NCBI GenBank assembly: GCA_044350025.1
Contig: JBILIK010000109.1
Span: 1-28,129, forward strand
Length of the DNA stretch: 28,129 nt
Reading direction: 5' to 3'
From: Polaromonas sp.
GTDB lineage: Bacteria > Pseudomonadota > Gammaproteobacteria > Burkholderiales > Burkholderiaceae_C
Part shown: positions 9,100 through 24,189 of the stretch, piece after piece
Numbering within the stretch: position 1 is the first letter of the stretch
How the letters are laid out: the number at the start of each line of letters is the position of its first letter
Program-made: the position numbers and the translations under genes
Notes under the pieces: generated by a model
What the model saw: the letters and a program-made list of their open reading frames with translations, nothing else
The model's database searches: none
Told to the model about the DNA's origin: nothing

Positions 9100-9296
9100 A
9101 CTTTTCTCTTTCTAAAAGTCTTAGGCATCCGTCTTACAAAAGTTTAGATTTATGACAGTCTATCAGCCCCCATTGTCGCTGTGAATTTGCTGTAGTGCCG
9201 CTAAATCGTTGAGGCTCTGTTGCCCATCTGCTTGCTCAACATGTGTATGTCAGGGCTGTGGCCTACGCGTCGTGCAATTTTCTTACGTGCAAAAGT

Positions 9297-9548
9297 CTAA
9301 GTGGCCATCAGCGCATCTTCGATCGAACCTTGGAAACCCTCGGCGTCGCCATAGTGCACAACAAGGCGGCTACCAACGAATCGCGAGTCATTGAAATGCC
9401 ATGTGTACGTGAACTCTTCGCCTTCGTAAAATCCTTGGGCATCTTTCACAAGATGCGCACCACTTTTAACATCCATCCACTCTGTTGAAGTAAGGCTCAC
9501 AGTCTGAGTTTCGTAACCAATTTGAACACTTAAACTAATATCAGCCAC
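9297..9548 (-). CDS. Hypothetical protein (83 aa, GTG start)
   Basis: ORF with an AAGGA-like motif upstream of the GTG. Local GC (~50% by eye) is higher than its neighbours. No family recognised. Confidence 0.4.
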   Translation of the reverse strand: MADISLSVQIGYETQTVSLTSTEWMDVKSGAHLVKDAQGFYEGEEFTYTWHFNDSRFVGSRLVVHYGDAEGFQGSIEDALMAT

Positions 9549-9640
9549 AAGGAAGATCCTTCAACATTGGTTAAATTAGAAAAGGCCAGTGAAAGAATTC
9601 GCCATCGTTGAGTCAATACTTCAGAAGCATACCAAGGCTG

Positions 9641-10447
9641 TCAATAAGCACCCGTGTTCAAATCGCCTTGATAACACTCTGGGAAAAATATATTGATCAT
9701 TTTCATTGAGTCATCTTCTTCTTTTTCAGACACAATTATTTGCTCCAGCAATTCAATTATTTCTTCTTTGCTGTATTCGTCATCATCAAGTATTTCACCA
9801 TCCAAACCCTTCAACTGATAGACACCATGTTGATTGGGACCAGAATCTAAAGCATGTTCTAGTTTGTCTTGATCAGGCGTACTGTCGTAGTTGTACATGG
9901 CCAAGCCAAGTTTGTGGAGTGCATGAGCCAGATCACTTACAAAATCATATACATCGTGCTGAGTGAATCTATCCATATAGTCGATATCTTCAGCAGGGTT
10001 TGAGCCGCCAAGCAATCCAAATGCATTTACTGTTTTTCCAGTTACAGCATCGAAAGAGAAAATCCTGTTCTTTCTGCCTAGACCGAAACATAAAACTTGT
10101 TTTGTGAAGAGATTAACTATTATGAAATCTGGATTGAGATTTCCAGAGTTGAGATAACTTGCAAAAGGTTCATAAAGTTCGATTAATACATTTTTCAATT
10201 CAGGCCTGAGAACGCTAACATTAATGAAAAACAAATGGCCTACTGGTTTTTCTTCGCTATCAGGATTATTTTCATAGTGTTTCAGCAAATATTCAAAATC
10301 ATCTTGGTTGTATTCCGCATTGGGAATATCTTTGGCTCTGGGTTGACGGTCAAAAAAGGATTTTGAATACACATCAACCAAATCACCTTGTTGCTGAAGT
10401 TTCGCAAGCAAGGCAATGGCTGTTTTTGTACCACCCGTGATTTTCAT
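9641..10447 (-). CDS. Hypothetical protein (268 aa) with an acidic C-terminal region, immediately downstream of the Type ISP gene
   Basis: ATG preceded by GAAGGGA. Same strand and similar low GC as the ISP gene. No motifs recognised. Confidence 0.55.
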   Translation of the reverse strand: MKITGGTKTAIALLAKLQQQGDLVDVYSKSFFDRQPRAKDIPNAEYNQDDFEYLLKHYENNPDSEEKPVGHLFFINVSVLRPELKNVLIELYEPFASYLNSGNLNPDFIIVNLFTKQVLCFGLGRKNRIFSFDAVTGKTVNAFGLLGGSNPAEDIDYMDRFTQHDVYDFVSDLAHALHKLGLAMYNYDSTPDQDKLEHALDSGPNQHGVYQLKGLDGEILDDDEYSKEEIIELLEQIIVSEKEEDDSMKMINIFFPECYQGDLNTGAY

Positions 10448-10582
10448 AACAGTTCCCTTCTGTTCTTAAAAATTTCTTACGAATTCACAAACGATGCACT
10501 ACTGGAATCGTTCACAACATCTGCAATCGTGCCATCTTTAATCCGCTGTACTCTTTGTTCAATCATTTTTTTAGATCGGTTA

Positions 10583-13500
10583 TCACAAATCCAATTTTGG
10601 AAGCGAGTTAACGATCTTCATAGTTTCAAGTGAAACGGTAATCACACGTTGAAAGAGTTCCAGAGGATACGCTGGGTTATTCATCGTTTCAATCGCATAG
10701 TCATTTGCGTCATTGACGATGCCACTATCCTTGTCGACTTTCAAGCATTGACGTTCCATGACCCACTCAAGCGCGGGTTTACCGTTCACTACGTATTCAT
10801 AGGCTTCAAGCGGAATGTTCTTGATCGTGATGCGTTCGTTATAGATGACCGTTGTTTTATCTTCACGACCACGGGTTCCTGCAAAGCGCATTTTCTCTAC
10901 CCTATAAAGAAAGGTAGGGTCTACATTATTAAGTAAATCAGTTTGACTCTCTATGCTCAAGTTTCTATAGGGCTCCGCTCTCTCATAACCAACATGTAGG
11001 GTGCCGAGGGATTTTCCTGCATCTGCGATTTGACTGAAGATGCCAAAACCCTTAACTAAAGGTATCTTAGGCAAGCCCTTTTGCAAATTATTTTGAAACC
11101 GAGTCTTGAATTCTAAGGAGTGCAGAACACCATAAATATAATAAAAAATATCTTCTTTCTTTAGGTCGGAATTTTTATAAAAATTCCTAAACTCAGAAAG
11201 ACTCCAATCACTAATTGAGTCAAGACGTTTATATGAGGAATCATCCTTCTTCAGAGAAAAAAGATCTTCGTCCCTTTCCTCTCTCTCATAAAGAAAAAGA
11301 GGAAAAACTTGACCATTGAACTGAAGTTGCACATCTGGTAGTACATCTGCAAGAACTGCAGAAAAGTTCTTTGAACCAACTCCTGAAACCGCTATGCAGA
11401 GATTAGAAAAACCATTCTGTGGGAAGATTTTGGGTAATTGATAGACCCGATTATTGAAGTCTCGATCCGCATATGCCCAGCGCTTGGTGAAAGGTCTATA
11501 TAGGGTAAGTTGTATTGATTCAGGGCGGAAAGTGATGGTTTCACCCCTTCTAACACCCTCTCTCTGAGCAGTATCCCAACTAATAAGTTTCGGATCTGTG
11601 TTGATGAAGTTTTCGATTGCTATCGATGGCTGACGATGACTATCTTTTGAAAATCGTTCAACCTCGGTGTTATAAAAATTGATTGTCCGGCTTACATTTT
11701 TTTTAAGTTTTTCAATCGAATAGTTGTAATTCCAAGAATCTCGGTTGGTTTTAAGACCGCTTGAATAGTTATTAAAAACTACTTTGCTGCCCTTACCCTT
11801 TTTGTCGCCCAAGGTAATGAAAGAGTCAAATATTACTTCTCCTTGGTTGATCCAGTCGTTTGTGTTATCTGGCGACAGGCAAGTCCACTTTCCCTCTTTT
11901 GAGATCCCTTTAATTGATTGATAGTGCGAAATTATCTTGAGTTTCTCCTCGCGATCAAAGTAGTCACCAATATCACAGTAGAAAATCTCCCCAGACCTTG
12001 GCGAAGTACCCCGCTTCCTAACCAGAATTGTTATTGCTATCGGTGATCTGCTACCAGATCCAAAAATTTTGCCTCCCTCTCGCCGAGACAACTCTCCAGC
12101 AGTTCTCTGATTTCCGCGAAGATTGAAAACGTAAATCTTGTCAAATTCCTCGACAAGGCACTTACGCATTCCGTCGGTTGCGTTTCCGTCAATCCATCCC
12201 GCACCCGTTACAAAGCCGATTACACCTTCATCACCGATGCGATCGGATGCCATTCGAAAGGCACGGATGTAACTGTCGTAGAGGGAGTTTTTTAACGTTG
12301 CTGAACTAGATGCCGCGTAGGTGCTTTCGATACGCCGATCTAAATTTGAGTACTTCACATTTGCCGCATTGTCATTAGCACTTGTTTGTCCAGCGGAATA
12401 TGGTGGGTTGCCAATGATCACATTGATCTTACGTTTTCTCTGATTCTTTCTGCGCTGAGAGTTATCCGGCAAAAGATTCGCGATCATGTCGTGATCTTCT
12501 TCGTAAAGTTGAAAAGTGTCAGTTAGAACAATCCCGTTGAAAGGACGATATTGATGATCGTCAGTCAAGTCTTGGTAGACTGATTCAGCATTTATCGAAG
12601 CGATGTAGTAAGCGAGAAGCACTATCTCGTTCGCATGAATCTCGCTTTCGAACTTACGTTTCAGACTTTGCTTATCAATCAATCCTGATTGCAAAAGTCG
12701 TGAAATAAATGTGCCCGTGCCAGCAAAAGGATCAAGAACATGCACATTCTTCTCAGTAATTCTTGTTCCAAACTCTTCATGCAAAACGTCTTCAACTGAG
12801 TGAATGATGAAGTCCACCACTTCGACTGGCGTATAGACGATACCCAGTCGCTCAGTCATTGACTTAAATGCATAACTGAAGAATCGCTCATATAACTCTA
12901 GTATGAGCGTCTGTCGACCAGTAGAGGTTTCAATGTCTGCCGATCTGCGCTTGACAGAATCGTAGAACTTTTGAAGCGAATCACTTTCCTTCTCAAGTCG
13001 TTGCGCTGATAACGCAGTCAGAATTGACTGCATAGACTTTGAAACAGGATTTTCTTCTGTAAATTTATGATCTTTGAAGAGTGATTCAAAGACAGGTTTA
13101 GTCACCAGATGCTGTGCGAGCATCTCGACTGCTTGCTCCTCTGTGATAGAGGGATTCAAATCATCACGAATCTCTGCAACAAATTCCTCAAAAAGTTTTC
13201 GCTCTTTCGTTCCAGAGTTGAAGACTATGGCTTTGATTCGTATGATGTGAGCCTGAGCGATCTTCGCAATGTCCTTAGCCCAGTTCTCCCAGTAATCCCG
13301 AGTACCGCATCGCTCGACAATCTTTGCCTTGATTGCTTTTGATAAATCAGACAAGACGAATGCAAGTTGCTCTCCAGAGGTAGATTCTGGCTCCTCAATT
13401 GGTTCCTTTTCTCCTTTACCTTCATTCTCTAGACCCTCATCGCCACCTTCTTTGCGTTTTGGTTTTATATCATCAACTACAGCGGTAGTTGCTTCAAGTT

Positions 13501-15484
13501 CCGCTCTCGCTCCAACCCCGACAATCTCAATACGATCTGAAACGTCTTCACCTAGCCCCATTTTGTTAATGGTGCTATCGAATCGCTCATCGTGCGATCG
13601 AAGCGCATTCAAGATCTGCCATACGACACGGTACTTATCGTTGTCATTCAATGCTTTTTCGGGTGATACGCCAGGAGCGACCGTAATTGGAATAATCACA
13701 TAGCCGAGATCTTTACCCTCCGCTTTACGCATTACCCTCCCAACCGACTGCACCACGTCAATTTGACTTTTACGGGGATGCATAAAAATGACTGCATCTA
13801 ACGCTGGAACGTCAACGCCTTCAGACAAACACCTGACATTAGTAAGAACACGACATGAGTTATCTTCAATATCGTCTTTGAGCCAATTCAATCGTTCGTT
13901 TCGTAGATCAGCATCAAAACCACCATCTACATGCTTTAGATCCACGCGAAAATTATCGCTTTTTTCCTCTGCAGATTCCTTTGAAAGATATTCATCAACA
14001 ACTTGTGAAAACTCTTGCTCAAGCAACTTTGAAAGTTTTATGTTTTGACAAAACGCTAACGCCCTTCGCATGGGCTTCAAAGATGAAAAATCTAGCGCAT
14101 CTGACTCTGTAAATCCTTCTTTTTCAAGTGCTTTATAGCAACCGATAATTTTTGTTGCATCGTCAAGTTTTAGTTCAGCACCTTCCGCTAATCGATTCTG
14201 AACTTTTTCGCTAACGATACCCTCATCAACTGCCAGCACAACAACTTTGTAGTCAGTTAAAAGATTGTTTTCAACAGCCCATCCGAAACCTTTGTAGAAG
14301 AATAATGGACCATAAGTACTTTCATCGTCCATAGAGGCAAGAGTGACATTTTCGTCATCCGCCTTTGTCTTTGCCTTTTCACCATAGATTCGTGGTGTTG
14401 CCGTCATATAAAGACGCTTTACACCATTGACGTTATCGTTACTATGTATCTTGACGAAACTTGACTCATCGTCTCCAACAAGCGTTGCACCTGTCGTTCG
14501 GTGCGCTTCATCACAAACAATAAGTTCAAAGTTACCTAAGCCGTGCTTCTTTTGCGCCTCTGAAATTACATCTATTGAGTGATATGTGGAGAAAACAACT
14601 GTCATTCGATCAGAAGATGCTTTTGCAACAGCATCAGCAAGATCTTTCGCATTGGTTGTTGCTGGAAACGCAAGATCGTTAGTGCTTATGATTACTTCAT
14701 CGTCCTTCTTTCTGCTACCAACAGTAGCATCTGAGCAAGCAGAAAAAGCATTAAAGTCATGTGTCGCATCATTCTTCCACTCTCTGATCGTTTGCGACAT
14801 GAGTGACAGTGACGGAACCATATACAGAACTGTTTTTCCCGCACCTGCAATAGATTCAGAAATGATCAAACTGGTATATGTTTTACCTGTACCGCAAGCC
14901 ATGATGATCTTGCCGCGGTCATGTTCTGCGAATCCCTCTCTAGTCTTCTCTAGAGCCTCAGATTGATGAGGGCGTGGTCCATGCTTTGCTCGAAAACGGA
15001 GTTCATCTTTTTTGACAAGAGTGAGCCAGTCGATTAGACAGTTCTCTAATTCTGAAGTTTGAATTCGAAGATATTCTTTGTCGAGTTTATCAAGCACTTG
15101 TTGTGCGTTTGGAGCAATGCCTAAACTTGATGTGTCGATCAATAGCAAACGACTAAAGTCTTTGTTTGACGAAGCAGAGACAAAAGAATCAAGGTCTTGC
15201 TTTGTGATCTGATTTTCGGCGCCATAGCACTTGCATTGAATAGCGCAAAAGGTGTCTTGACCACGAATCTTGGCAACTAGATCGATTCCAATGTCTTTAC
15301 CGCTATAACCCTCATGCCCTGTTACCCAATCTGTGTAGTGCCAAACTCGCTCATATTGTTGCGTTTGAGTAGGATCGTTCTCAAGAAAGACCTTGACCAT
15401 TTTTTCAAATGCAGTTCCTAACTCAGTCGTGTTTGTTGAGCGGGTCCTTATTACTTCAAGGGCTTGTCTGAAAATAGTTGCCAT
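10583..15484 (-). CDS. Type ISP restriction-modification enzyme (single polypeptide: Mrr-like nuclease + SF2 helicase-like ATPase + gamma-class N6-adenine methyltransferase + C-terminal target-recognition region), LlaGI/LlaBIII-like
   Basis: 1633 aa. The PD-(D/E)xK-like motif is GIDLVA...AIQCKCY (about residues 66-86). The ATPase motifs are Walker A ACGTGKTYT (about 196-204), DEAH VCDEAHR (about 323-329), TATP, and motif VI QSVGRVMR. The methylase motifs are SAM motif VLDPFAGTGTF (about 916-926) and IIGNPPYSAG (about 1023-1032). A further ~600 aa C-terminal region follows. Domain order and size match the described Type ISP architecture. Confidence 0.85.
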   Translation of the reverse strand: MATIFRQALEVIRTRSTNTTELGTAFEKMVKVFLENDPTQTQQYERVWHYTDWVTGHEGYSGKDIGIDLVAKIRGQDTFCAIQCKCYGAENQITKQDLDSFVSASSNKDFSRLLLIDTSSLGIAPNAQQVLDKLDKEYLRIQTSELENCLIDWLTLVKKDELRFRAKHGPRPHQSEALEKTREGFAEHDRGKIIMACGTGKTYTSLIISESIAGAGKTVLYMVPSLSLMSQTIREWKNDATHDFNAFSACSDATVGSRKKDDEVIISTNDLAFPATTNAKDLADAVAKASSDRMTVVFSTYHSIDVISEAQKKHGLGNFELIVCDEAHRTTGATLVGDDESSFVKIHSNDNVNGVKRLYMTATPRIYGEKAKTKADDENVTLASMDDESTYGPLFFYKGFGWAVENNLLTDYKVVVLAVDEGIVSEKVQNRLAEGAELKLDDATKIIGCYKALEKEGFTESDALDFSSLKPMRRALAFCQNIKLSKLLEQEFSQVVDEYLSKESAEEKSDNFRVDLKHVDGGFDADLRNERLNWLKDDIEDNSCRVLTNVRCLSEGVDVPALDAVIFMHPRKSQIDVVQSVGRVMRKAEGKDLGYVIIPITVAPGVSPEKALNDNDKYRVVWQILNALRSHDERFDSTINKMGLGEDVSDRIEIVGVGARAELEATTAVVDDIKPKRKEGGDEGLENEGKGEKEPIEEPESTSGEQLAFVLSDLSKAIKAKIVERCGTRDYWENWAKDIAKIAQAHIIRIKAIVFNSGTKERKLFEEFVAEIRDDLNPSITEEQAVEMLAQHLVTKPVFESLFKDHKFTEENPVSKSMQSILTALSAQRLEKESDSLQKFYDSVKRRSADIETSTGRQTLILELYERFFSYAFKSMTERLGIVYTPVEVVDFIIHSVEDVLHEEFGTRITEKNVHVLDPFAGTGTFISRLLQSGLIDKQSLKRKFESEIHANEIVLLAYYIASINAESVYQDLTDDHQYRPFNGIVLTDTFQLYEEDHDMIANLLPDNSQRRKNQRKRKINVIIGNPPYSAGQTSANDNAANVKYSNLDRRIESTYAASSSATLKNSLYDSYIRAFRMASDRIGDEGVIGFVTGAGWIDGNATDGMRKCLVEEFDKIYVFNLRGNQRTAGELSRREGGKIFGSGSRSPIAITILVRKRGTSPRSGEIFYCDIGDYFDREEKLKIISHYQSIKGISKEGKWTCLSPDNTNDWINQGEVIFDSFITLGDKKGKGSKVVFNNYSSGLKTNRDSWNYNYSIEKLKKNVSRTINFYNTEVERFSKDSHRQPSIAIENFINTDPKLISWDTAQREGVRRGETITFRPESIQLTLYRPFTKRWAYADRDFNNRVYQLPKIFPQNGFSNLCIAVSGVGSKNFSAVLADVLPDVQLQFNGQVFPLFLYEREERDEDLFSLKKDDSSYKRLDSISDWSLSEFRNFYKNSDLKKEDIFYYIYGVLHSLEFKTRFQNNLQKGLPKIPLVKGFGIFSQIADAGKSLGTLHVGYERAEPYRNLSIESQTDLLNNVDPTFLYRVEKMRFAGTRGREDKTTVIYNERITIKNIPLEAYEYVVNGKPALEWVMERQCLKVDKDSGIVNDANDYAIETMNNPAYPLELFQRVITVSLETMKIVNSLPKLDL

Positions 15485-15516
15485 GATTTTTTATATTATT
15501 TTTTGATTAATTAAAA

Positions 15517-16140
15517 TTACTGCTGCTCATCTTCAAGACGAAGGCGTCGGGCAGCGAGAGTCTCGTCCTCATACTGCCAGTAGTCGTTACCACTGACGGA
15601 AGTCCACTGGTATCCCATTTTCCGAAGAGCAATCAGTGCTGCCCCACTTGGCGAAAGAGATTGCCCTTCATGTTGCACTCTGCCATCTGCTACCACGGTG
15701 CAGGTCACGTTGGAGTCTTTTGTAAAGATCAACATGGCACCCACAGGAATGCCCAACTCTGAAAACCTCAGACGAGTCCTACGCTCTTCTGTGGCCACGG
15801 CTCTTTGCAAGGCCTGCACATCTGAGGCATCCACGACCACGTCAACCTTGGGCGTGACCTCTTTAAGTTCCGCAAGTTGGATGGCTTCTTTGACTTGATT
15901 GGCATCAGCACGAAAAAACTCGCGGTTTGATCTAATGCGCTTGTCGGAAAAGATGCGGTGAAGTTTGCCCTCAACCAAAGCGGAATTGCCAACCTCAGCC
16001 GCATAAAAGCACTGGAATGGCAATGGCATGCTGGTGTTGTCCAACTCTCTGATCCGCTGCTCTACGCTAGTGGTTGTACGTCCGATCTTGACCATGCCTT
16101 CCATGGCTTCATTGGTCAGAACGTAGACAATTTCAGGCAT
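15517..16140 (-). CDS. T5orf172/MUG113 (GIY-YIG superfamily) domain protein with a DUF4357-like C-terminal domain
   Basis: The N-terminus MPEIVYVLTNEAMEGMVKIGRTT...RIRELDN...EFF is typical of T5orf172. The C-terminal part (GQSLSPSGAA...GNDYWQYEDETL) resembles the small domain often fused to these proteins near R-M loci. The ATG at 16140 overlaps the upstream stop (TGATG). Confidence 0.65.
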   Translation of the reverse strand: MPEIVYVLTNEAMEGMVKIGRTTTSVEQRIRELDNTSMPLPFQCFYAAEVGNSALVEGKLHRIFSDKRIRSNREFFRADANQVKEAIQLAELKEVTPKVDVVVDASDVQALQRAVATEERRTRLRFSELGIPVGAMLIFTKDSNVTCTVVADGRVQHEGQSLSPSGAALIALRKMGYQWTSVSGNDYWQYEDETLAARRLRLEDEQQ

Positions 16141-16907
16141 CAATTTTCTTTCTTGGTTGGAGTACTCACAGGGAAAACACCATTCTCTACGTTTTTGATT
16201 ATTTGTTGGGCTTGGGAAACGTATCTTTTCACGTGTGCACCCAACATGTTTCGTCCAAGCAACCGTTCTGCGCTGGTCTTGGACAAGGCCTGTCTACTGG
16301 CATCTCGGTTAAAGCGCATGTCAACGCCAATTTCCCACAAGGTCTTGCGCTCTGGCTTGGGCAAGGCTTGGTTGGCTAGCCAGAGGTCATAGGCCTCCAG
16401 TGTGCGTTCAAGGTTCTGTATGGTGTAGTTGCGTGCCAAGGGGTACCGAGCAGTCTGCGTGACCTCGGCCAGTGCTGGCCGCCCTCTTGACCTCTGCAAC
16501 CTACTGTCAAGCAACTTGGCGAACTCGCCTTTAAGACGACGATTGCTGACACGCAATGGCACAGCCACGATCATCACGTCCTCTACGTTCCAAGAGGCAT
16601 CCCATTGATCTCGCGATGTCAACTCACCGAACTTGGCTTCCAACCGCTGCTCAGCAAACAGCCTAGGTCCACGCTGCTCATGGGTCCACCACTTGTGGAA
16701 ATCAGCAGCACGTACGTCACCAAAGTCGGCGTATAGCCCAGCCAAGCGGCCCTCACCACCAGCCTCGCAGCACTCAAGGTAGGCCGCACTCCTCATCAGA
16801 TACGCCCACCACCAGTAATAGGGGCTGCGCTTCTGGTAGGTGTCAGCAAGTCGGTTGTTGACCCGTCCAAACAGTGGGTGTGGAGCGAGGAAGTGCGTCT
16901 TAGCCAT
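16140..16907 (-). CDS. Hypothetical Trp-rich protein (~255 aa), unknown function
   Basis: The ORF opens at a TTG (16958), but the first ATG is at 16907 (MAKTHFL...). It contains SPYYWWWAYLMRSAAYLECCEAGG. GC is ~50% by eye. No family recognised. Confidence 0.55.
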   Translation of the reverse strand: MAKTHFLAPHPLFGRVNNRLADTYQKRSPYYWWWAYLMRSAAYLECCEAGGEGRLAGLYADFGDVRAADFHKWWTHEQRGPRLFAEQRLEAKFGELTSRDQWDASWNVEDVMIVAVPLRVSNRRLKGEFAKLLDSRLQRSRGRPALAEVTQTARYPLARNYTIQNLERTLEAYDLWLANQALPKPERKTLWEIGVDMRFNRDASRQALSKTSAERLLGRNMLGAHVKRYVSQAQQIIKNVENGVFPVSTPTKKEN

Positions 16908-16998
16908 TCTTACCAAGTAATTGATGTGAATGCTCGGATGGTACACGAAAACAGCCAAAAACTTGATACTTCATCTACTGCAAATTCGCAGTATTTTT

Positions 16999-17421
16999 AT
17001 GGAGATGAATATGAACCACGTTAAGCAAGCACTATCAATTAACAAAGAAAAAAAGGCACATGCACTGCGACTTTATAAACAGGCCGTTAGTGAAGTTGTG
17101 CGCAAAGATTACAAACCAATGGACGATGATGCGCATGTTGATCTAAGTGCTGTATTTGGAATGAAATATGTTGAAGAACTTTTACAAAATGGAAAATCTT
17201 TTATCAATGCAAGCGTTTATGCCGCTTCGAATGTGGAATTTAATTATGCCAATTGCTTGTATTCACAAAAAGAAAAGTTTATCCAACTAGCGAAGGAACT
17301 TGTTTCCAAAAATGAAAGAGTTGACGATCAAAAACTCGAAAACATCGCAAGTCAAATGAATTTTATTTTGACATTTACTACAGCGAAACCTGCCGAAAGG
17401 CCATTTGTGCTGTTCAAATAA
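16999..17421 (+). CDS. Hypothetical protein (~137-140 aa)
   Basis: In-frame ATGs occur at 16999, 17005 and 17011. GGAG at 17001-17004 favours 17011 (MNHVKQ...). No family recognised. Confidence 0.5.
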   Translation: MEMNMNHVKQALSINKEKKAHALRLYKQAVSEVVRKDYKPMDDDAHVDLSAVFGMKYVEELLQNGKSFINASVYAASNVEFNYANCLYSQKEKFIQLAKELVSKNERVDDQKLENIASQMNFILTFTTAKPAERPFVLFK

Positions 17422-17438
17422 TATTTAGAAATAATCAA

Positions 17439-17492
17439 TTCCACGGCCTGAAAGTATTGCTCTTTACAAATACTTAATTAATGGCCGTGGAA
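17439..17492 (+). other. Nested intergenic stem-loop
   Basis: The outer 10 bp perfect inverted repeat is TTCCACGGCC / GGCCGTGGAA (17439-17448 / 17483-17492). It encloses an inner AAGTATT / AATACTT pair. No U-tract follows. Confidence 0.4.
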
Positions 17493-17511
17493 CATCATAC
17501 AAGGAAAAATC

Positions 17512-17886
17512 ATGGAAATTATTACCACACCCGTCAAAGTCAAGACTGGAAAAGGCAGATCTAGGAAATATCAATTTCTAGATGCTGAGAAAATGAACAA
17601 TCAATACCCATCAACGTTTATGCTTCATTCACTTCAGATTAGATCTAATATACCCAACCGAATGTGGGTCAAATGTGGGGTTCAATGGAGTGGAGGCATT
17701 AATGAAAATGCATGGTTTGAGGTAATTGAAGTACAAAAAGATGATCTCGGAAAAATCACATATACAGCCGAGTTAGACAAATACAACTTGAGTGGGCTCG
17801 GCGAAGGTGTTGTTGCTTGTGGGATTGAACCGCGACATATATTAGATTTGGATTTCGAAAAATTCAAAAAGATGTTTGCACCTTAA
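17512..17886 (+). CDS. Hypothetical protein (124 aa)
   Basis: ATG preceded by AAGGAAAAA. Faint resemblance to DUF2314-like proteins (MWVKC...AWFEVIEV) that I cannot verify. Confidence 0.5.
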   Translation: MEIITTPVKVKTGKGRSRKYQFLDAEKMNNQYPSTFMLHSLQIRSNIPNRMWVKCGVQWSGGINENAWFEVIEVQKDDLGKITYTAELDKYNLSGLGEGVVACGIEPRHILDLDFEKFKKMFAP

Positions 17887-18455
17887 ACCAGTTCCACAGC
17901 CTTGCGCAACATGTTGTCATTGGCATCGATGTAAACGGCTGTGGTGCTGACATTCCTATGTCCCATCAATCGCATCAACACACGCAGACCCACGCCTTGC
18001 GATGCAATTGATGTGGCATAGGTTCTACGGCCACTGTGGCTGCTGGCACCTTCAATGCCCGCTGCGCGGTACAGGCTCAAAAAGTGTTGTGTGAGTGTGT
18101 TGGCTGTGAAACCTTTGCGTGGATTTTTCTGAGTGGGAAACAAGGCGCGATCCTTGTCGTCTGTGCGAATCAGCGTGACGTACTGGGTCAGTTCTTCCTT
18201 GAGTCTAGTGCTGACAAACACGGTGCGTGGATGCTTGCCCTTGGTCTGTTCAGCAGTCAAACGGATTTCATTTTTGATGTTGCCAGTGGCATCCACAACA
18301 TGACCAACAGTGAGTGAGGCAATCTCCCCTACCCGCATGCCGCTCAAATGACTTGTGAGAATCAACGCCCTATCGCGTGCTGCGTATTTTTTAGCACTGA
18401 CATGCTCAAGTACCCGTTTAATTTCTTGTTCGTTTAGTGTTTTGGCTTGTGACAT
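17883..18455 (-). CDS. Small tyrosine recombinase consisting of the catalytic domain only (190 aa)
   Basis: Candidate catalytic residues appear in order: R (ARDRALIL), HSGRRTYAT (H-x-x-R), GHRNVSTT (H/W) and AVYID (Tyr). There is no N-terminal core-binding or arm-binding domain. It overlaps the 3' end of the convergent gene by 4 bp. Confidence 0.7.
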   Translation of the reverse strand: MSQAKTLNEQEIKRVLEHVSAKKYAARDRALILTSHLSGMRVGEIASLTVGHVVDATGNIKNEIRLTAEQTKGKHPRTVFVSTRLKEELTQYVTLIRTDDKDRALFPTQKNPRKGFTANTLTQHFLSLYRAAGIEGASSHSGRRTYATSIASQGVGLRVLMRLMGHRNVSTTAVYIDANDNMLRKAVELV

Positions 18456-18759
18456 TTGTTGCTCCTTGGCGTAATCAAATAATTAACTTGAAATAAGCAT
18501 AATTTCTGAGATTAGGTCTGAGCAACCTCTATGTAAACGACCCGCCAAGGTGACGGGTTTCTATGTTGTTTTGTTCAAAATCAAGGGGTTAGCGCAGCAA
18601 CTACATATTTCAGTAATTTTCTTTGGTTTCGTATTTATGAGTTTTCTGTGGCTTATAGAACACGAATTGACGGACAAGCCCTGCAAGCGTTTTTAAGCGT
18701 AGGCCGCTACCCAAGTACCCATTTGTATTTTTTGATTTGCTGTAGGGCTTTTAAGTGCG

Positions 18760-19230
18760 TTAATTTTTAATGACTGTGTGATACAGCGTTTCTAAGTCAA
18801 GTTTGTAGGTCAGGTCACTCACATTGAGAATTTCAACAGATCCTCTAATAAACCACTCAACGACACCTTCTTCACTTCTGATTGAAATCTGACCTTCATC
18901 ATCATCAACAACAACTTCTTCCTCACCATAGTCGTGTTGAGGTAATTTGAAGATCCATATGAGTTGTTGTAATTCATACTCCATAACTAAATCTATGTTT
19001 GTTGCAAGATAGTCTGGTGAAAGAGCAAACTTGATCTCTTTTTCACTGTCACGGATGTTCTTTATGTCAAGTACCTGTACTGGTGTCAATATTGGACGTG
19101 TGTACGATTTATGTTCTATAGATTCTTGTACAGCGACTGGATCTTCACTTCCATTGCTCATTTGATAAACAGCAAGAACACTTATTTTTACGAGTAGATT
19201 TTTTAACTGCTCTTCATCCATTAAGTTCAC
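18760..19230 (-). CDS. Hypothetical acidic protein (156 aa, GTG start)
   Basis: GAGGAAG lies 6 nt upstream of the GTG at 19230. It has many D/E residues (YGEEEVVVDDDEGQ). No family recognised. Confidence 0.5.
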   Translation of the reverse strand: MNLMDEEQLKNLLVKISVLAVYQMSNGSEDPVAVQESIEHKSYTRPILTPVQVLDIKNIRDSEKEIKFALSPDYLATNIDLVMEYELQQLIWIFKLPQHDYGEEEVVVDDDEGQISIRSEEGVVEWFIRGSVEILNVSDLTYKLDLETLYHTVIKN

Positions 19231-19340
19231 TTGTCTTCCTCTTTAGCAATATTTTCAAAATCTTCTATTAAAGCATTCACATGTTTGGCTCTAAACCAAG
19301 TTCACTGCACTCCAATTCTTTTATTTCACATGTCCGACTT

Positions 19341-19841
19341 TCACTTGTGCTCTAACAACGTCTCAATGATGTCCCATCTATTTTTGTATTCATCAATTCG
19401 CCAACCTGAGTAAGAAGCAGATGGAGGGATATTGATGGTTCTGACTGTGCCATCTTGCCTGACGCTTCCATCTTTACTCAATTCACTAAGCCACATCTTA
19501 TGCGCCTTTGAAACATTCGTTGAGACTTCTAAAGAAGGAATAACGTAGTACTCAAAATCTGCTGTTGAGTTTGCTGACGGAATACCAGCAAGAACCCAAA
19601 TGAAGTTCTCACCAAAATTCTTTTCAGCCTTTACACCAACCGTAACTGTTTTATTGCCAGGCACATATGTCTTGACTTGTATGTGAACGAACTTTGTTCC
19701 CTCTGCGTTGCTACAAAGAATGTCCGTATTAGGCGTATTGCCCATAGTGACTACAGCAACCAAATCACGTCTACAAAGTTCACCAGCCACAAAAAACTGT
19801 GCTGAACTTCCTCTTGCGTTCTTATTTGTGGTTGCCATCAT
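19341..19841 (-). CDS. PD-(D/E)xK nuclease-like protein (166 aa)
   Basis: The pattern GSSAQFFVAGELCRRDLVAV...TDIL...VHIQVKT resembles the restriction-endonuclease-like fold (D...(E/Q)xK) of small stand-alone nuclease-like proteins. Confidence 0.45.
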   Translation of the reverse strand: MMATTNKNARGSSAQFFVAGELCRRDLVAVVTMGNTPNTDILCSNAEGTKFVHIQVKTYVPGNKTVTVGVKAEKNFGENFIWVLAGIPSANSTADFEYYVIPSLEVSTNVSKAHKMWLSELSKDGSVRQDGTVRTINIPPSASYSGWRIDEYKNRWDIIETLLEHK

Positions 19842-19992
19842 TGACTCAATTTTTGTTTAGTTGACTCATCTTACTTGTCAGTCTTGTTTTATTCAATGTT
19901 TGAGTTTTTATCTATGTATGAATCGTTCAAGCATGACAAAGAACTACGAACCCTTGTGCGATTCGCAGTGTTGTAAGAACCTTAAAGTGACT

Positions 19993-20583
19993 TCAGTCTG
20001 CTTTAAGGGCGGCGTGAGGAATCCAGCAGTTGCTTACATCCCAAATGCTGTTTGTGTCCCACGCCTTACGTGTGTTTTGTTGTGCCTCTTTTAATGAGTA
20101 GCCTGCCCAATGTGAGGCCTCGCCTACTTTGTAGTAGTCGTAGGCTTTCACATCCGTTGATTGATGTGCCATATCGTGCCAAGCGTGCCTAAATAATGTT
20201 TCTATGTCATCCGTACTGAGAACGGAGGGCAAGTTGCCTAATGAGATGTTTACGTGAATTGTTTGTGATCTGTCAGTGGTCTCTTTTGCCCCTTCGATCG
20301 TTACGAAGGTAAGTGGCTTAAAGAGATACGGGTTCTGGGCGGGCCTATTTGATCGTGCTGGATAAAGGGATCTGAAGAAGCAGTTCAATGCGTGCCTTGT
20401 GTCCTTGCTTGTTTGCTCCATCTTTGATTTGATGTACTGATCTGCCCTCACGTGCTTAAAGCGCCCTACATCTGTACTCGCTACATATGGGCGATGCAAG
20501 GTGTGGGCAACGACTACGTGGCTTACGTGTTGCTCGTGCTGATTAAACATAGATTCAATGTCTTTGGCGTTGTACTGTCTCAT
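19993..20583 (-). CDS. Hypothetical protein (~196 aa; 203 aa if the TTG at 20604 is used)
   Basis: Long ORF with no recognised family and no obvious Shine-Dalgarno for either start. Confidence 0.45.
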   Translation of the reverse strand: MRQYNAKDIESMFNQHEQHVSHVVVAHTLHRPYVASTDVGRFKHVRADQYIKSKMEQTSKDTRHALNCFFRSLYPARSNRPAQNPYLFKPLTFVTIEGAKETTDRSQTIHVNISLGNLPSVLSTDDIETLFRHAWHDMAHQSTDVKAYDYYKVGEASHWAGYSLKEAQQNTRKAWDTNSIWDVSNCWIPHAALKAD

Positions 20584-20654
20584 GAATTTATTTAGTAAAA
20601 CCAAAGAAAAGGAGACAGAAATATTGAGGTTGCTCTTCTTGCAGATCAGAAATT

Positions 20655-20677
20655 AAAGTTAAGTTCTCTTTAACTTT
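20655..20677. promoter_or_regulatory. Inverted repeat AAAGTTAA-N7-TTAACTTT in a divergent intergenic region (candidate operator)
   Basis: Perfect 8 bp arms at 20655-20662 and 20670-20677, 14 nt upstream of the ATG at 20692. Confidence 0.3.
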
Positions 20678-20691
20678 TTAGGACGATCGCG

Positions 20692-21135
20692 ATGAGCATT
20701 CTTTCAACTCTCAAATTTGTAGCAAGCAAGAAAAAGCAGGGAATTGCACCCTTAATTCAACGCAGAAACAAGTTGAGCAACAAGATCTTTGAACAAATTC
20801 AACTGGCCCAAGCACAAAAAGATGGACGCACGTACGCACCCACACGCTTGAAGACTTACGTCAACAAGCAAACGGGCGAACGCAAGACCATTGAATCAGT
20901 CAAAAAAGTGCGTGAGTGGTGGCACATCAATGACAGCGGAAAAATCAACTTGATTTGCAAGTACGGCAGCAAGCAGATCCAATTTGACGCAAAAGGCAAG
21001 AATGCTATTGAAGTGTCAAATGGCGATGAATTGCTGACTGCACTTGAGTCGCTGAAGTTGGCTGTTGAGCAAGGTGAACTTGATCAGCAGATTGAAGCAA
21101 CCAGCAGCGCCTTGCGAGCAGGATTTTCTAAGTAA
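20692..21135 (+). CDS. Island-associated hypothetical protein (147 aa; resembles a conserved family seen next to integrases, possibly DUF6641-like)
   Basis: The layout is MSILSTLKF...RRNKL...EQIQLA...WW...G.I.L..KYG.K...F...GKNAIEV...L...L..AVEQGELD. The family name is recalled from memory and unverified. Confidence 0.5.
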   Translation: MSILSTLKFVASKKKQGIAPLIQRRNKLSNKIFEQIQLAQAQKDGRTYAPTRLKTYVNKQTGERKTIESVKKVREWWHINDSGKINLICKYGSKQIQFDAKGKNAIEVSNGDELLTALESLKLAVEQGELDQQIEATSSALRAGFSK

Positions 21136-21143
21136 GGGCACAA

Positions 21144-21173
21144 GTTGTTCATATAAATAAATGTATGAACAAC
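21144..21173 (+). promoter_or_regulatory. 10 bp perfect hairpin GTTGTTCATA-N10-TATGAACAAC sequestering the start codon of the next ORF
   Basis: The arms are at 21144-21153 and 21164-21173. The right arm contains the ATG at 21165. It lies 8 nt after the preceding stop. Confidence 0.35.
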
Positions 21174-21509
21174 TATTTGGCCACAGTGCGTGCCATGGGA
21201 CGAGTGTTGCAGACAGCAGTCTTTGCACAAAGCCCATTACATGCACGGTATATTTTAGAATTTCAATTTGGGATCGGCAATGTACACATCAATCCCAAAC
21301 CCGTGTCGCTTTTATTAGCAGATGCTGTAGTTGGTGAAGGAGCAGCGACACAAGCGAATTTAAACCCGCATCAACAACGCATCAAAACACTGCAAAGACA
21401 AAAAGACTTGATCTCAAAAAGCATTGAGTCTGAGCGAGCCAAAGACAAGTTGTCAAAGGCCCAGCAGCAGATGCGAATGGCAACTCAAATCAAAACTGGT
21501 TTTTCTTGA
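21165..21509 (+). CDS. Hypothetical protein (114 aa)
   Basis: ORF with a basic, coiled-coil-like C-terminus (QRQKDLISKSIESERAKDKLSKAQQQMR). No family recognised. Confidence 0.4.
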   Translation: MNNYLATVRAMGRVLQTAVFAQSPLHARYILEFQFGIGNVHINPKPVSLLLADAVVGEGAATQANLNPHQQRIKTLQRQKDLISKSIESERAKDKLSKAQQQMRMATQIKTGFS

Positions 21510-21741
21510 GATTTCATGAAATCGGATTGGGTAGATTTTTATAAGTTGCGCACACAATTTTTTGTCTTAACTACTTTTCTATCACCCCACCATTTTTTTG
21601 ACCATACCCCTTTTCAATTCAAAATGCTCAAACCGGTCGATAGGTAGTTGCTGACTGGTTTAAGCGCTGGTATAGGTGTTGATTGCTAGGAACTGGCCTA
21701 ATGAATGACAGGTGTAGTTGAAATGTTTTTCAGCCAACTGC

Positions 21742-22107
21742 CTAGTATTCGCTTGGCAACATGACCACCCAAAACTCACCCGTCCAACAACCGTAAAGTG
21801 TGATGGCAGATAGTGGGAAGTCTGTGTACTCGATTTTCTGCTTTGCCAAGACCCTGCCGTTTCCATCCTCAATTGAAACAGATGCTGATCGATTTGTGCT
21901 TGTGAGTTTCAGACAAGTGAACCAATCTTTGTTGCCATCAACGCCACTTAAGTGTGATGCGTACACATCAAACAACCAAAAGCACTCTGCGTTTTCAGCA
22001 AGGTAGCGTGAGCCCTCTGTGAGCAATACAGTCCGTGTCAATTTCGCTAACTGATCACAACCAGTGAACTGTTTGAGCGTTGCGAGTAATTCATTTTCTT
22101 CAACCAT
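21742..22107 (-). CDS. DUF6876-like protein (121 aa), a family common on plasmids and integrative elements
   Basis: The layout is QFTGCDQL...LTEGSRYLAENAECFWLFDV...IEDGNG...IEYTDFPL...LPSEY. An AAGGA motif lies upstream of the ATG. The family name is from memory. Confidence 0.55.
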   Translation of the reverse strand: MVEENELLATLKQFTGCDQLAKLTRTVLLTEGSRYLAENAECFWLFDVYASHLSGVDGNKDWFTCLKLTSTNRSASVSIEDGNGRVLAKQKIEYTDFPLSAITLYGCWTGEFWVVMLPSEY

Positions 22108-22201
22108 TTCTGTGTTCCTTTAAGTGTGAACACAGTATTAGTTCTTCGCATCAAATGGACAACCTGTGTCCTGCCAGATTGGCGGTGTATCAATAGCCTA
22201 C

Positions 22202-23614
22202 TCACTTTGCCTTGACAGAAACCTTGGCATTTGTTTTCTTAGGGGCTATTTTTCTTGCCAGCAATTCTGCTTTTTTCTTTGCTTGTGCTGAGTGATAGAT
22301 TTCTTCAACAGTTGAAGTTGAGGCAATTCTTCGTCGTGTTTCTTGTCCACGCAATTGCTCAGTTGCTTCAATTACTTTGAGATGACTATAGTGACGCTCA
22401 ATCATCAGCACACTTGTACCCATCTGTTTAGCAAGCGTGTGAATTGGCACTTTATCGTGCGTCAGTGCCAGCGTTGCGTATGTGTGACGAAAACTGTAGA
22501 ACACACGGTTCTGCTCCGTTTTTGGATCGTACAGCAAGTTGTGCTCATCCAAGTACCTCTCAAACATGTGTTGAAACGCTGCACTGACGTCTTGCTTCTT
22601 TTCTTTTGTACGCAACACAAAGTCATCATTGTTTGGAGTCACAACATTTTTGAACGGATCAATGATGTTATTTCTAACGCCATAAACACGACGAGCAATA
22701 CGCTCAAGCACTTTCACCGTTGGCTGTCTTCCAACAATTTCACGTGTGCCCGTCTTACCCGTAACAATTAACTCAACACCTCTGTTTAAATCAGTCAGAA
22801 CAATTTCTTCTTCTGTGCCATCGTCTGAAACAGCCTTTTGCCCAGTGTAAATTTCTCTAGGATTCATCGTGAACTTGATCTGTTTCCATTTCAAGTTCAT
22901 CAACTCTTTGCCAGGTCGTGCTCCTGTATCAATGAGCATCTCAGAATAGTCACGCATTATCTGGCGCATCTCTTTGCTGTGTGCGTTACGTGCCCGTTCA
23001 ATCCATGCTTCGAAGTTGTTGATCACAGCCTGTATTTCCTTCAGCGTAAAGGCTGGATGGCGTGTGCTCTTCTTACCTTTCGCTTCAAGTTTTGGACGAT
23101 TGAGATCAGTTAAAAAATTACGCAGCACAGCCTCGTCAAACACCAGATTCAGTGCTGCGTTGTGGCTAAGCATGGTGCTGTTGCTTGGCGTTCTTTCCAT
23201 CATCTGTATGCGTTCAGCATCCAAGTGATCCAGTGCTGTGCTGTCAATGTTGGTGATGAGCCTGTTGCCCAAAATTGGGATCAAGTACTCATTGATGATG
23301 CGCATGTAGTCTTTGTAGGAGACTTTGCCATCGCCGTTGGCAATCTTCTGTTCCATACGCTGTACGGCAAGTTTGGCAACGTCTCTGAACTTGCGTGTGA
23401 TGACTGGCAGGTTGTCGTGCTTGCGAATTTCCGCACGTATCTTTATCGCCTTCGCTACTTCTTTGGCATCTTTCAACTTGCGTTCTTTAGTTGAGGCACG
23501 TTGCCAAACACCATCAACTTTGTAGCGGCATTGCCAAATTGAACTTCGCTCTCGTCTGTAAACGACAAGTTCGTTTTCTGTGACTATGTGAGTCGTTTCA
23601 AGTTTGGCTGACAT
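22202..23614 (-). CDS. int: Tyrosine-type site-specific integrase of the island (470 aa)
   Basis: The C-terminal catalytic region reads TGARPGKELMNLKW...FYSFRHTYATLAL...TLAKQMGTSVLMIERHYSHL (R, H-x-x-R, H, Y). It lies at the island end next to the tRNA/att region. Confidence 0.85.
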   Translation of the reverse strand: MSAKLETTHIVTENELVVYRRERSSIWQCRYKVDGVWQRASTKERKLKDAKEVAKAIKIRAEIRKHDNLPVITRKFRDVAKLAVQRMEQKIANGDGKVSYKDYMRIINEYLIPILGNRLITNIDSTALDHLDAERIQMMERTPSNSTMLSHNAALNLVFDEAVLRNFLTDLNRPKLEAKGKKSTRHPAFTLKEIQAVINNFEAWIERARNAHSKEMRQIMRDYSEMLIDTGARPGKELMNLKWKQIKFTMNPREIYTGQKAVSDDGTEEEIVLTDLNRGVELIVTGKTGTREIVGRQPTVKVLERIARRVYGVRNNIIDPFKNVVTPNNDDFVLRTKEKKQDVSAAFQHMFERYLDEHNLLYDPKTEQNRVFYSFRHTYATLALTHDKVPIHTLAKQMGTSVLMIERHYSHLKVIEATEQLRGQETRRRIASTSTVEEIYHSAQAKKKAELLARKIAPKKTNAKVSVKAK

Positions 23615-23657
23615 AAACGCACTTTAATTTCAAAACGACAAAAGATCAACCAAGTAA

Positions 23658-23665
23658 GTGTGTAG
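23658..23665 (+). repeat. GTGTGTAG motif between the integrase start and the island tRNA (candidate arm-type site)
   Basis: Same 8-mer and orientation as at 8240, 8252 and 24064. Confidence 0.4.
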
Positions 23666-23674
23666 TGTGCAGAC

Positions 23675-23706
23675 AAAAAAAGAGAACTGCTTTTACACAG
23701 TTCTCT
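23675..23706 (-). terminator. Rho-independent terminator after the island tRNA
   Basis: The minus strand reads AGAGAACTG-tgtaaaag-CAGTTCTCT followed by TTTTTTT, starting 9 nt after the tRNA CCA end. Confidence 0.6.
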
Positions 23707-23714
23707 TTTAGATT

Positions 23715-24003
23715 TGGTGGGACCAGCGAGACTCGAACTCGCAACCAAAGGATTCCGCTTTGTGTGACTTTCGCCACTCGCTGGACTTTGCCTTCACCAT
23801 ATTGATTGCTCAACTTAGGCGGGTGCCGTCAAGTCTCTACACGTTCCAAAGTGCTTTCGCACCAAGGCTTCGCTCGGCATTGCCGTATGTGTTTCCACAC
23901 TTAGGTTTCACCGAATTTGACACCATCCCTTACACAGTTTCCACGTGTAAGGCACATTTGAGAAATATGAGTCCTCTGCGCTAACCAATTGCGCCATAGT
24001 CCC
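23715..24003 (-). tRNA. Island-borne tRNA(CAU), most like tRNA-Ile2 (lysidine type; Met not excluded), interrupted by a group I intron after the anticodon
   Basis: The 5' exon is GGGACTATGGCGCAATTGGTTAGCGCAGAGGACTCAT (24003 to 23967). The 3' exon is AATCCTTTGGTTGCGAGTTCGAGTCTCGCTGGTCCCACCA (23754 to 23715). Joined, they fold as a canonical cloverleaf with anticodon loop CTCATAA. Confidence 0.85.
23755..23966 (-). ncRNA. Group I intron, subgroup IC3, Azoarcus pre-tRNA-Ile type (212 nt, no ORF)
   Basis: The minus strand is near-colinear with the Azoarcus ribozyme as I remember it. The matching segments are AUGUGCCUUACACGUGGAAACUGUGUAAGGGAUGGUGUCAAAUUCGGUGAAACCUAAGUGUGGAAACACAUACGGCAAUGCCGAGCG, then GUGUAGAGACUUGACGGCACCCGCCUAAG, then GGCGAAAGUC, ending in GCGG. 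P1 forms as CAU|AU with AUGUG, with a U.G wobble at the 5' splice site. The terminal G precedes AAUCC. Confidence 0.85.
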
Positions 24004-24012
24004 TTAATACTG

Positions 24013-24018
24013 ATTGTA
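24013..24018 (-). promoter_or_regulatory. Candidate -10 box TACAAT for the island tRNA
   Basis: The minus strand reads TACAAT-cagtattaa-GGGAC. The host tRNA has the same hexamer and spacing at 24199-24204. No convincing -35 box. Confidence 0.35.
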
Positions 24019-24052
24019 CGTGGTCGTTTTACTATAAAAACAGTCCTCAAAA

Positions 24053-24071
24053 GTGTGTAAGCGGTGTGTAG
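24053..24071 (+). repeat. Pair of GTGTGTA(A/G) motifs (candidate integrase arm-type sites, attR side)
   Basis: GTGTGTAA is at 24053-24060 and GTGTGTAG at 24064-24071. The paired spacing resembles the attL pair. Confidence 0.45.
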
Positions 24072-24126
24072 TGTTTAACGCACCCTCTTAAACTACGTAA
24101 CATGTTGATTTATATAGATAATTTAC

Positions 24127-24135
24127 GATTATGAG
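24127..24135. repeat. Extra inner copy of the att core GATTATGAG, 13 bp inside the right junction
   Basis: CGATTATGAGAACTTTT here compares with GGATTATGAGAAGTTT at attL. Confidence 0.5.
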
Positions 24136-24148
24136 AACTTTTTTAATA

Positions 24149-24189
24149 GATTATGAGTCCTCTGCTCTAACCAACTGAGCTATAGGCCC
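24149..24189 (-). pseudogene. 5' half (G1 to C40) of the host tRNA(CAU) gene; attR junction
   Basis: The minus strand reads GGGCCTATAGCTCAGTTGGTTAGAGCAGAGGACTCATAATC, then diverges into AT-rich island DNA with no T arm or acceptor strand. Confidence 0.85.

Follow-up and report, generated by a model that had tools for sequence, protein, structure and literature searches.

Group I introns of bacterial tRNA genes come without a homing endonuclease and are sporadically distributed, and neither their movement nor the reason for their persistence has been explained since they were discovered. In the Azoarcus intron, a member of the IC3 class, the insertion site lies directly after U36 and the P1 helix is formed by pairing of CAU with GUG, with a U.G wobble. 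Group I introns in Betaproteobacterial tRNA-Ile(CAU) genes are already known, and so is tRNA-dependent lysogeny, which to our knowledge has so far been shown in actinobacteriophages only. The Azoarcus intron is 205 nt long, is located in the anticodon loop of pre-tRNA-Ile and has both P9 and P9.0 (PMC13168695). In the tRNA-dependent lysogeny of mycobacteriophages (Guerrero-Bustamante and Hatfull 2024; PMC10865867), attP and attB have about 10 bp in common, and complementation of the disrupted host tRNA by a phage tRNA has been established experimentally; the same article cites prophage Lj965 of Lactobacillus johnsonii alongside the phenomenon. A hypothesis of Randau and Soll, as cited in a further article (PMC4390854), holds that introns and split genes shield archaeal tRNA genes from integrating elements.

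The locus examined here combines elements of these systems. In the window, which is the whole 28,129-nt stretch of DNA that was analysed, a 15,974-bp island is inserted into the anticodon loop of a host tRNA-Ile(CAU) gene adjoining hrcA, and this island carries a complete, intron-containing tRNA(CAU) gene of its own. The island gene extends from 24003 to 23715 on the minus strand and consists of two exons, of 37 nt (5') and 40 nt (3'), around a 212-nt intron (Table 1), with the exon and intron coordinates resting on a base-by-base check. ARAGORN in intron mode detected one 77-nt tRNA(cat) over exactly this interval, with a 212-nt intron at ctcat-Intron-aatcc, and the 77-nt tRNA(cat), a cloverleaf with anticodon CAU, was called on the spliced and on the unspliced sequence alike. 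With default settings, ARAGORN found no tRNA in the whole window. A first-pass annotation of this DNA had described a complete second tRNA(CAU) gene whose exons are split by 212 nt between U36 and A37. The intron-mode search and the sequence check agreed with this description in full as regards the gene and its interruption; the word "second", where it implies a spare copy, had to be dropped, as no intact copy other than that of the island is present at this locus, where the host gene has been split.

ARAGORN gives the Met label to every CAU anticodon, and the identity of the tRNA was examined by comparison with E. coli, in which the best matches of the spliced island tRNA were the two genes annotated as tRNA-Ile (78.7% identity), a result consistent with tRNA-Ile2(CAU). 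The island tRNA and the host tRNA are identical at 63 of 77 positions, including the entire anticodon arm. A (G)TACAATC block, which contains the putative -10 element of the island gene, was seen by eye to be kept 5' of related host and island tRNA-Ile genes.

The nature of the insert was examined by profile search and by folding. In E-value mode, the Rfam model RF00028 (Intron_gpI) matched positions 23762-23979 of the minus strand over its full length (model positions 1-253), with a score of 45.7 bits and an E value of 3.2e-10 in a 1-kb search. Nothing was reported for the intron region at the Rfam gathering thresholds, the score for this model being below the gathering score of 50; the RF00028 match anticipated in the first-pass annotation was therefore obtained at a significant E value but not at the curated threshold. 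A P1-P2-P3-P4-P5-P6-P7-P8-P9.0-P9 structure was then written on the intron sequence and examined in an alignment of 51 distinct tRNA-Ile introns that includes the one in the window. All 61 of the P1-P9 pairs in the window were canonical, including those of the P3/P7 pseudoknot. Across the alignment, 93.6% of cells were paired, compared to 26 to 41% when the partners were slid by 1 to 3 columns, and two-sided changes occurred at 32 pairs, with none of 500 shuffles attaining the observed values. The P3 helix was 99.3% paired with three covarying pairs, P7 was also 99.3% paired, P4 was invariant, and P5, P6 and P8 covaried.

The splice sites had the features of this intron class. P1 is formed by CAUAU/AUGUG with a U.G wobble at the 5' splice site; its C-G, A-U and U.G pairs did not vary in any of the 51 sequences, and the pair that follows them covaried. 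The final base of the intron, the omega-G at position 23755, was invariant in the alignment, as were the P7 core, the P4 helix and the splice-site U.G. Both P2 and P9 are capped by GAAA loops, and receptor-like motifs of the form CCUAAG...UA(U/C)GG were located in P5 and P8. These results bore out what had been read by eye in the first pass, namely an Azoarcus-type group I intron with a CAU 5' exon tail paired to a GUG guide, a U.G at the splice site and a terminal G. One reading was overturned: the hairpin GUGGCGAAAGUCAC, previously taken to be an extra 3' element with a GAAA loop that is absent from Azoarcus, is the ordinary P9, which was present in all 51 members, the 204- to 205-nt Rhodocyclaceae introns included, and the Azoarcus intron itself has P9 and P9.0 (PMC13168695). 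The residues that the window intron has in excess of the 204- to 205-nt introns were placed by the alignment in the P1 loop and P8. Judged by its profile match and fold, the insert is an Azoarcus-type (IC3) group I intron with an intact ribozyme fold, in which "Azoarcus-type" rests on Rfam, the Rhodocyclaceae homologues and PMC13168695, and it is predicted to be self-splicing.

Table 1. Positions of the features of the island, its tRNA gene and the displaced host gene in the window
Feature	Position	Strand	Remarks
5' exon, island tRNA-Ile(CAU)	23967..24003	-	ends ...GGACTCAT, anticodon CAU; ARAGORN -i and sequence check
Group I intron, IC3 Azoarcus-type, 212 nt	23755..23966	-	between U36 and A37; starts AUUUCUCAAA, ends ...CAAAGCGG, omega-G last
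3' exon, island tRNA-Ile(CAU)	23715..23754	-	AATCC...CCCACCA, CCA encoded; ARAGORN -i and sequence check
Intrinsic terminator hairpin and T-run, directly 3' of island tRNA	23678..23709	-	13 pairs, T tail
TACAAT, putative -10 element	24013..24018	-	10 nt 5' of island tRNA start; promoter function predicted
Integrative island, 15,974 bp	8175..24148	.	42.5% GC versus 57.6% in flanks; GC step at boundaries
Host tRNA-Ile(CAU), displaced 5' half	24149..24189	-	ends in 9-bp core CTCATAATC (24149-24157); directly downstream of hrcA
Second core CTCATAATC (8175-8183), then displaced host tRNA-Ile(CAU) 3' half (8174..8139)	8139..8183	-	
Core-like third copy TTCTCATAATC	24127..24137	-	11 nt inside island; partly conserved in relatives
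Arm-type repeat pair CTACACACCGCTTACACAC, between core and island tRNA	24053..24071	-	
Arm-type repeat CTACACAC, between island tRNA terminator and integrase start	23658..23665	-	
Arm-type repeat pair CTACACACTTTGCTACACAC, island far end	8240..8259	-	homologous to L084 junction
Tyrosine integrase, 470 aa	22202..23614	-	PF00589, 28.5 bits; phrog_216 integrase
Type ISP/IIG restriction-modification enzyme, 1633 aa, island cargo	10583-15484		
PDC-S57/T5orf172 protein, island cargo	15517-16143		

The island is bounded by the 9-bp direct repeat, outside which lie the two halves of the host gene; these form a perfect 77-nt tRNA(cat) when rejoined. The right junction reads ...CTCATAATC/TATTAAAAAAG and the left junction ...GAAACTTCTCATAATC/CTTTGG, the latter being preceded by ...GAAACTT and lacking a tRNA 5' part; outside the left repeat, the host 3' half is followed by a terminator and then by a ChrR-like gene. 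Default ARAGORN called no tRNA at either island junction in the window. A core of just 9 bp is common to both ends, so neither junction rebuilds the tRNA, and the island copy would therefore be a replacement gene. Classical restoration, in which a 3' portion borne by attP regenerates the target tRNA at one junction, was not what was found; the arrangement is that of an attB within a tRNA gene with a short common core, here 9 bp, and no tRNA rebuilt at attL or attR.

The integrase residues R233, R376, H408 and Y409 were invariant in six homologues. All five matches of YTACACAC in the window lie on the tRNA strand at the island ends. One pair is close to the left end, a second pair lies in the stretch from the core to the island tRNA, and the fifth match falls between the terminator of this tRNA and the start of the integrase; arm-type sites would be expected to be distributed in this way. 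With such repeats on both sides of it, the intron-containing tRNA gene falls within the attachment region of the island. The same arm repeats were present at the same positions in L010, L022, L032, L070, L083 and other loci. An attP predicted by joining the left and right ends through one core was colinear with a real inter-island junction in Limnohabitans parvus and with L088. The third, core-like sequence was also considered as a nested or older junction and was rejected as such, relatives showing it to be a partly conserved part of attP. Taken together, the island boundaries, arm repeats and integrase confirmed that the tRNA(CAU)-intron gene is carried on an integrase island, as had been proposed at the outset.

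Besides the cargo listed in Table 1, the island encodes a DUF6876 protein, a DUF6641 protein and a short second recombinase. Phage structural families were not found among the island open reading frames, the integrase had no close relatives in IMG/VR, and a search with the pre-tRNA gave no match in a phage collection and three partial matches in a plasmid collection. These searches thus gave no support for a prophage or satellite identity of the island. The right-end stretch 23615-24200, which runs from the start of the integrase to the 5' half of the host gene, was identical in two JGI metagenome records (3300043469 and 3300042875); one of the two is possibly the source of the window itself. 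An assembly chimera was rejected, as the layout was found in these two records, in an isolate genome (L. parvus II-B4, L070) and in many other assemblies.

The distribution of this layout was examined by scanning species-representative genomes with the conserved intron block TCAAATTCGGNGAAACCTAAG. Most of the 87 loci obtained were Betaproteobacterial tRNA-Ile(CAU) genes with the intron at the same position; the matches listed also included five Moorena records, four Pyrinomonadaceae records and CPR lineages. By eye, the exon flanking the Moorena matches resembled a tRNA with a CCU anticodon. In at least 26 loci besides the window, a host 5' half (...CTCATAA...) was followed 170 to 240 nt further on by a complete intron-containing tRNA-Ile(CAU) gene, and the recurring order was host 5' half, paired arm repeats, intron-containing tRNA-Ile(CAU), terminator and, often, integrase. 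This layout accounted for about 21 of about 53 (about 40%) complete intron-bearing tRNA-Ile(CAU) genes in the species-representative genomes. The split half was located at the 3' end of hrcA in L009, L070, L083 and L001, whereas in L010, L016, L061 and L080 it followed the 3' end of a sigma-factor gene that resembles rpoD, as read by eye from the C-terminal translation; at least four different types of arm repeat were distinguished across loci. In L. parvus II-B4, the hrcA locus (L070) is occupied by an island whose integrase is 91% identical, and this island is followed by an attP-like junction and then by a relic that consists of arm repeats and an intron-containing tRNA without an integrase (L084).

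An independent sample was obtained from metagenomes by selecting loci for integrase similarity. All relatives with 75 to 96% integrase identity and readable upstream DNA carried the intron-containing tRNA. In relatives with 59 to 69% identity, the host half was often split in the same way but the replacement tRNA had no intron, and in a few, L150 and L161, an intact tRNA was followed by arm repeats and integrase in the classical manner. The intron is hence not obligatory for the island superfamily, a notion that was rejected on the basis of 13 loci with intron-less replacement tRNAs and 59 to 69% identical integrases. The first-pass annotation had implied a one-off piece of cargo; the same design in about 21 of about 53 intron-bearing genes and in close integrase relatives from metagenomes contradicts this.

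The relationship between intron, integrase and exons was examined across loci. Intron identity to the window tracked integrase identity (Spearman 0.88, 20 loci). The exons did not follow this pattern uniformly: L088 has the exons of the window, L089 and L090 have a 96%-identical integrase and a 97.6%-identical intron yet Limnohabitans-type exons, and L092 has the exact host exons of the window around a 208-nt intron. Among loci with a split half, intron-type replacements kept the host 5' strand of the anticodon stem in 21 of 26 cases besides the window, which keeps it too, with the other five differing at one position from the adjacent half, whereas the intron-less replacements had a changed stem, GTCGA or GGCGA, in 13 of 13 loci. 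As the intron tracks the integrase, the exons are exchanged and the intron goes with a host-type stem, these comparisons suggest that the intron belongs to the island and not to any host gene, and they fit the masking of attB considered below. The contrast between stem and intron comes from few independent lineages, which counts against such masking.

The best explanation of what was observed here, namely the anatomy of the gene, the split host gene, the intact ribozyme fold, the recurrence in many genomes and the co-divergence of intron and integrase, is that the intron-containing tRNA-Ile(CAU) gene of the island replaces the host gene destroyed by insertion. We regard this as probable, with masking of attB by the intron added at lower confidence. 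In this reading, recombination by the island's tyrosine integrase joined the 9-bp core CTCATAATC to the anticodon loop of the hrcA-adjacent host tRNA-Ile(CAU) gene and left two gene halves 16 kb apart, with the tRNA rebuilt at neither junction. The island tRNA gene would be transcribed with what are apparently its own -10 element and terminator, and the intron would splice itself out with guanosine and Mg2+, leaving ligated exons. The resulting tRNA would decode AUA after lysidine modification and would take over from the lost host tRNA. Splicing would thus have to occur in vivo, with complementation of the host by a tRNA that is presumably essential.

A further role for the intron is suggested by its position, between the fifth and sixth bases of the 9-bp core. 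The host tRNA and the spliced island tRNA have their longest identical run in the 24-nt sequence GCAGAGGACTCATAATCCTTTGGT, centred on the core, and without the intron this host-attB-identical stretch would lie about 170 bp from the island's own core. By splitting the 24-bp stretch, the intron might let the island carry a host-type target without offering the integrase an intact attB. Two further observations count against masking. The intron-less tRNAs of related islands with 59 to 69% integrase identity still hold a contiguous 9-bp core, and in a sister lineage the site of integration seems to be the 5' splice junction of genes that contain the intron (L014, L033, L044, L078). Insertion by this lineage leaves decayed remnants of the host intron and 3' exon in L033, L014 and L044, and its own intron and 3' exon are carried in L078. 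In its widest form, the idea would make the intron a working part of the element, which interrupts the attB core in DNA and removes itself from RNA, so that neither self-recombination nor re-targeting takes place; the islands would be the vehicle that spreads Azoarcus-type introns through Betaproteobacteria, and the "chromosomal" copies would be relics or products of exon exchange after island decay. This wide form is put forward tentatively and is, in our judgement, rather doubtful.

The same data can be read with the intron as a passenger, captured together with the gene of an earlier host by an island that needs the tRNA, and persisting without any role for the island through harmless splicing. 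We consider such an origin quite possible, if somewhat short of an even chance. Co-divergence with the integrase in the face of exchanged exons speaks against it, as does retention of the intron in all close integrase relatives, although more distant islands manage with intron-less replacement tRNAs. In its favour, the TACAATC block 5' of the island gene resembles that of host genes, and 31 locus-strand entries from the genome and metagenome sets have an intron-containing copy alone, with no split half upstream; in L042, an intron-containing gene lies directly after hrcA. Integration of the sister lineage at the 5' splice junction and the contiguous core of intron-less copies mean that the intron could equally be a tolerated passenger, but its presence with a host-identical anticodon stem and its absence with an altered stem are less easily reconciled with this reading.

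It is very unlikely that the complete gene is a relic, either a former host gene or a remnant of an older tandem island, beside a classical tRNA-targeting element. Tandem arrays and relic copies do exist, the arm repeats and intron-containing tRNA without integrase in L. parvus (L084) being one, and heterologous island ends abut the start of this island type in L092, L105 and L106. In the window, however, the gene sits between the island's own arm repeats and its integrase, and L088 has the same order in its junction of attP form, as do the island copies L070, L059 and L032; moreover, a classical element would rebuild a tRNA at one junction and none is rebuilt here. That the intron or the tRNA is a pseudogene, with the cell relying on another tRNA-Ile(CAU) gene, is scarcely credible. 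The RF00028 score under the gathering threshold would fit such decay, but the 61 helix pairs, the U.G, the omega-G, the GAAA loops and the CCUAAG/UAUGG-type receptor motifs are all intact, compensatory exon changes between islands keep the cloverleaf, and copies that have decayed (L033, L014, L044) are clearly different in appearance.

Replacement of the host gene by the island copy would have consequences for how these introns are maintained. Integrase islands are a concrete vehicle, open to testing, by which endonuclease-less tRNA introns could spread and be retained: the resident tRNA-Ile(CAU) gene is destroyed, and the intron-containing copy put in its place would then be hard to lose. This design may explain how Azoarcus-type introns spread. 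It would also bring proteobacterial defence islands that are not phages within the scope of tRNA-dependent lysogeny, and a self-splicing intron might have a function at the DNA level, that of masking a recombination site. As the gene escapes both default tRNA finders and the Rfam gathering thresholds, genomes of this kind seem to be without tRNA-Ile(CAU) and to contain tRNA fragments only. No description of an island-borne, intron-interrupted replacement tRNA or of this island family was found in the full-text literature, a body from which most subscription journals are absent; this agrees with the remark in the first-pass annotation that such an intron is not known to have been described as cargo of an integrase island, although the same logic without an intron has been published as tRNA-dependent lysogeny (PMC10865867).

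Comparison with the described systems places this locus between several of them. It resembles the Azoarcus intron in its host gene, tRNA-Ile(CAU), and its anticodon-loop position (PMC13168695), in the possession of helices P2-P9 and P9.0, and in its small size (212 nt here versus 205 nt) with no open reading frame in the intron. The P1 loop and P8 are slightly longer here, and the gene is demonstrably located on an integrative island that destroyed the resident intron-less gene. With tRNA-dependent lysogeny, the locus shares a tyrosine integrase with arm-type sites, an attB in a host tRNA gene, a core of about 10 bp and the absence of a rebuilt tRNA. In contrast to the mycobacteriophage cases, the element is a small defence island without the characters of a temperate phage, the host is a Betaproteobacterium and the target is tRNA-Ile(CAU), and the replacement gene is interrupted by an intron of the self-splicing type exactly within the core. 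Classical Islander-type islands (PMC4383910) have in common with it a tyrosine integrase, a target in the anticodon loop, direct repeats at both ends and a displaced fragment that marks one end; they differ in that their target is regenerated from a 3' portion borne by attP, whereas here the two halves of the host gene have both been displaced and the island brings a separate, complete one. As in the idea of Randau and Soll, in the form in which PMC4390854 cites it, an intron in the anticodon loop removes a contiguous recombination target while leaving the mature tRNA unchanged, but the gene that would be shielded here is the mobile element's own, and the intron is a bacterial ribozyme instead of an archaeal intron spliced by an endonuclease.

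In four loci, the island end was joined straight to a group I intron and a 3' exon, with no 5' exon present, and the island end read ...CTGCTCTCAT at the fusion. Both the intron core and the 3' exon were degraded in three of these loci (L033, L014 and L044), while in the fourth (L078) they were intact and were followed by an integrase of 52% identity. These loci suggested that a sister lineage of islands inserts at the 5' splice junction of tRNA-Ile genes that contain an intron, and that it brings its own intron and 3' exon.

Exon sequences of a further related locus, L092, were also informative. The exons of its island tRNA (L092:278-562), which contained an intron of 208 nt, were identical to those of the split host tRNA of the window, and this identity indicated an exchange of exons between host and island copies. 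Junctions of attP form were present in several metagenome contigs (upstream regions of L092, L088, L105 and L106), some of which included the end of another island, with arm repeats TTGCTTCCACATTTGCTTCCACACC. These junctions are circles or heterologous tandem arrays. Near the junction core in the window, on the island side, a core-like third copy, partly kept in related islands as GTTCTCATAATCG and GTTCTCATATTCG, could represent either a site of core type for the integrase or a secondary one.

Coordinates and sequences of features in the window and related loci
Feature	Location	Strand	Details
Core-like third copy	window 24127-24137	(-)	TTCTCATAATC; 11 nt from junction core, island side
Stand-alone tyrosine recombinase catalytic domain, 190 aa	window 17883-18455	(-)	PF00589, 94.5 bits
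Defence-related island cargo	window 10583-16143	(-)	
Island end joined straight to intron and 3' exon	L014:3756-3990, L033:2713-2939, L044:3262-3486, L078:2463-2698		
Unrelated arm repeats	L020, L025, L039, L017, L079, L024, L001		TCTGGTCCATTTCTGGTCC; TTAGGCTACAAATTAGGCTACA; GCTTCTACGGCGCTTCTACGG

The defence-related cargo consisted of a restriction-modification enzyme, a Type ISP/IIG fusion of 1633 aa, adjoined by a PDC-S57/T5orf172 protein, a PADLOC candidate system. The recombinase domain lay in mid-island, and homologues of 46 to 49% identity were detected in three related islands (L001, L059 and L010).

The layout of a split half and an intron-containing tRNA recurred in the seven loci with unrelated arm repeats. 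No clear integrase homologue was detected in the 3 to 7 kb downstream in L020, L025, L039 or L079, with L025 having a single weak partial match (26%, about 5 kb away), and L001 had an integrase of 36% identity about 1 kb downstream. It seems that either the design is common to other integrase lineages or these loci are relics. By eye, a putative small conserved coding region was observed between the arm repeats and the intron-less replacement tRNA in L134, L135, L143, L153 and L146.

Two loci, L070 and L084, were located about 16 kb apart on one contig of Limnohabitans parvus II-B4, in the tandem order hrcA, host half, integrase-bearing island, attP-like junction and relic, the last of these consisting of arm repeats and an intron-containing tRNA without an integrase. 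It appears that the replacement tRNA persists after an island has decayed and that the hybrid site is reused by a new one.
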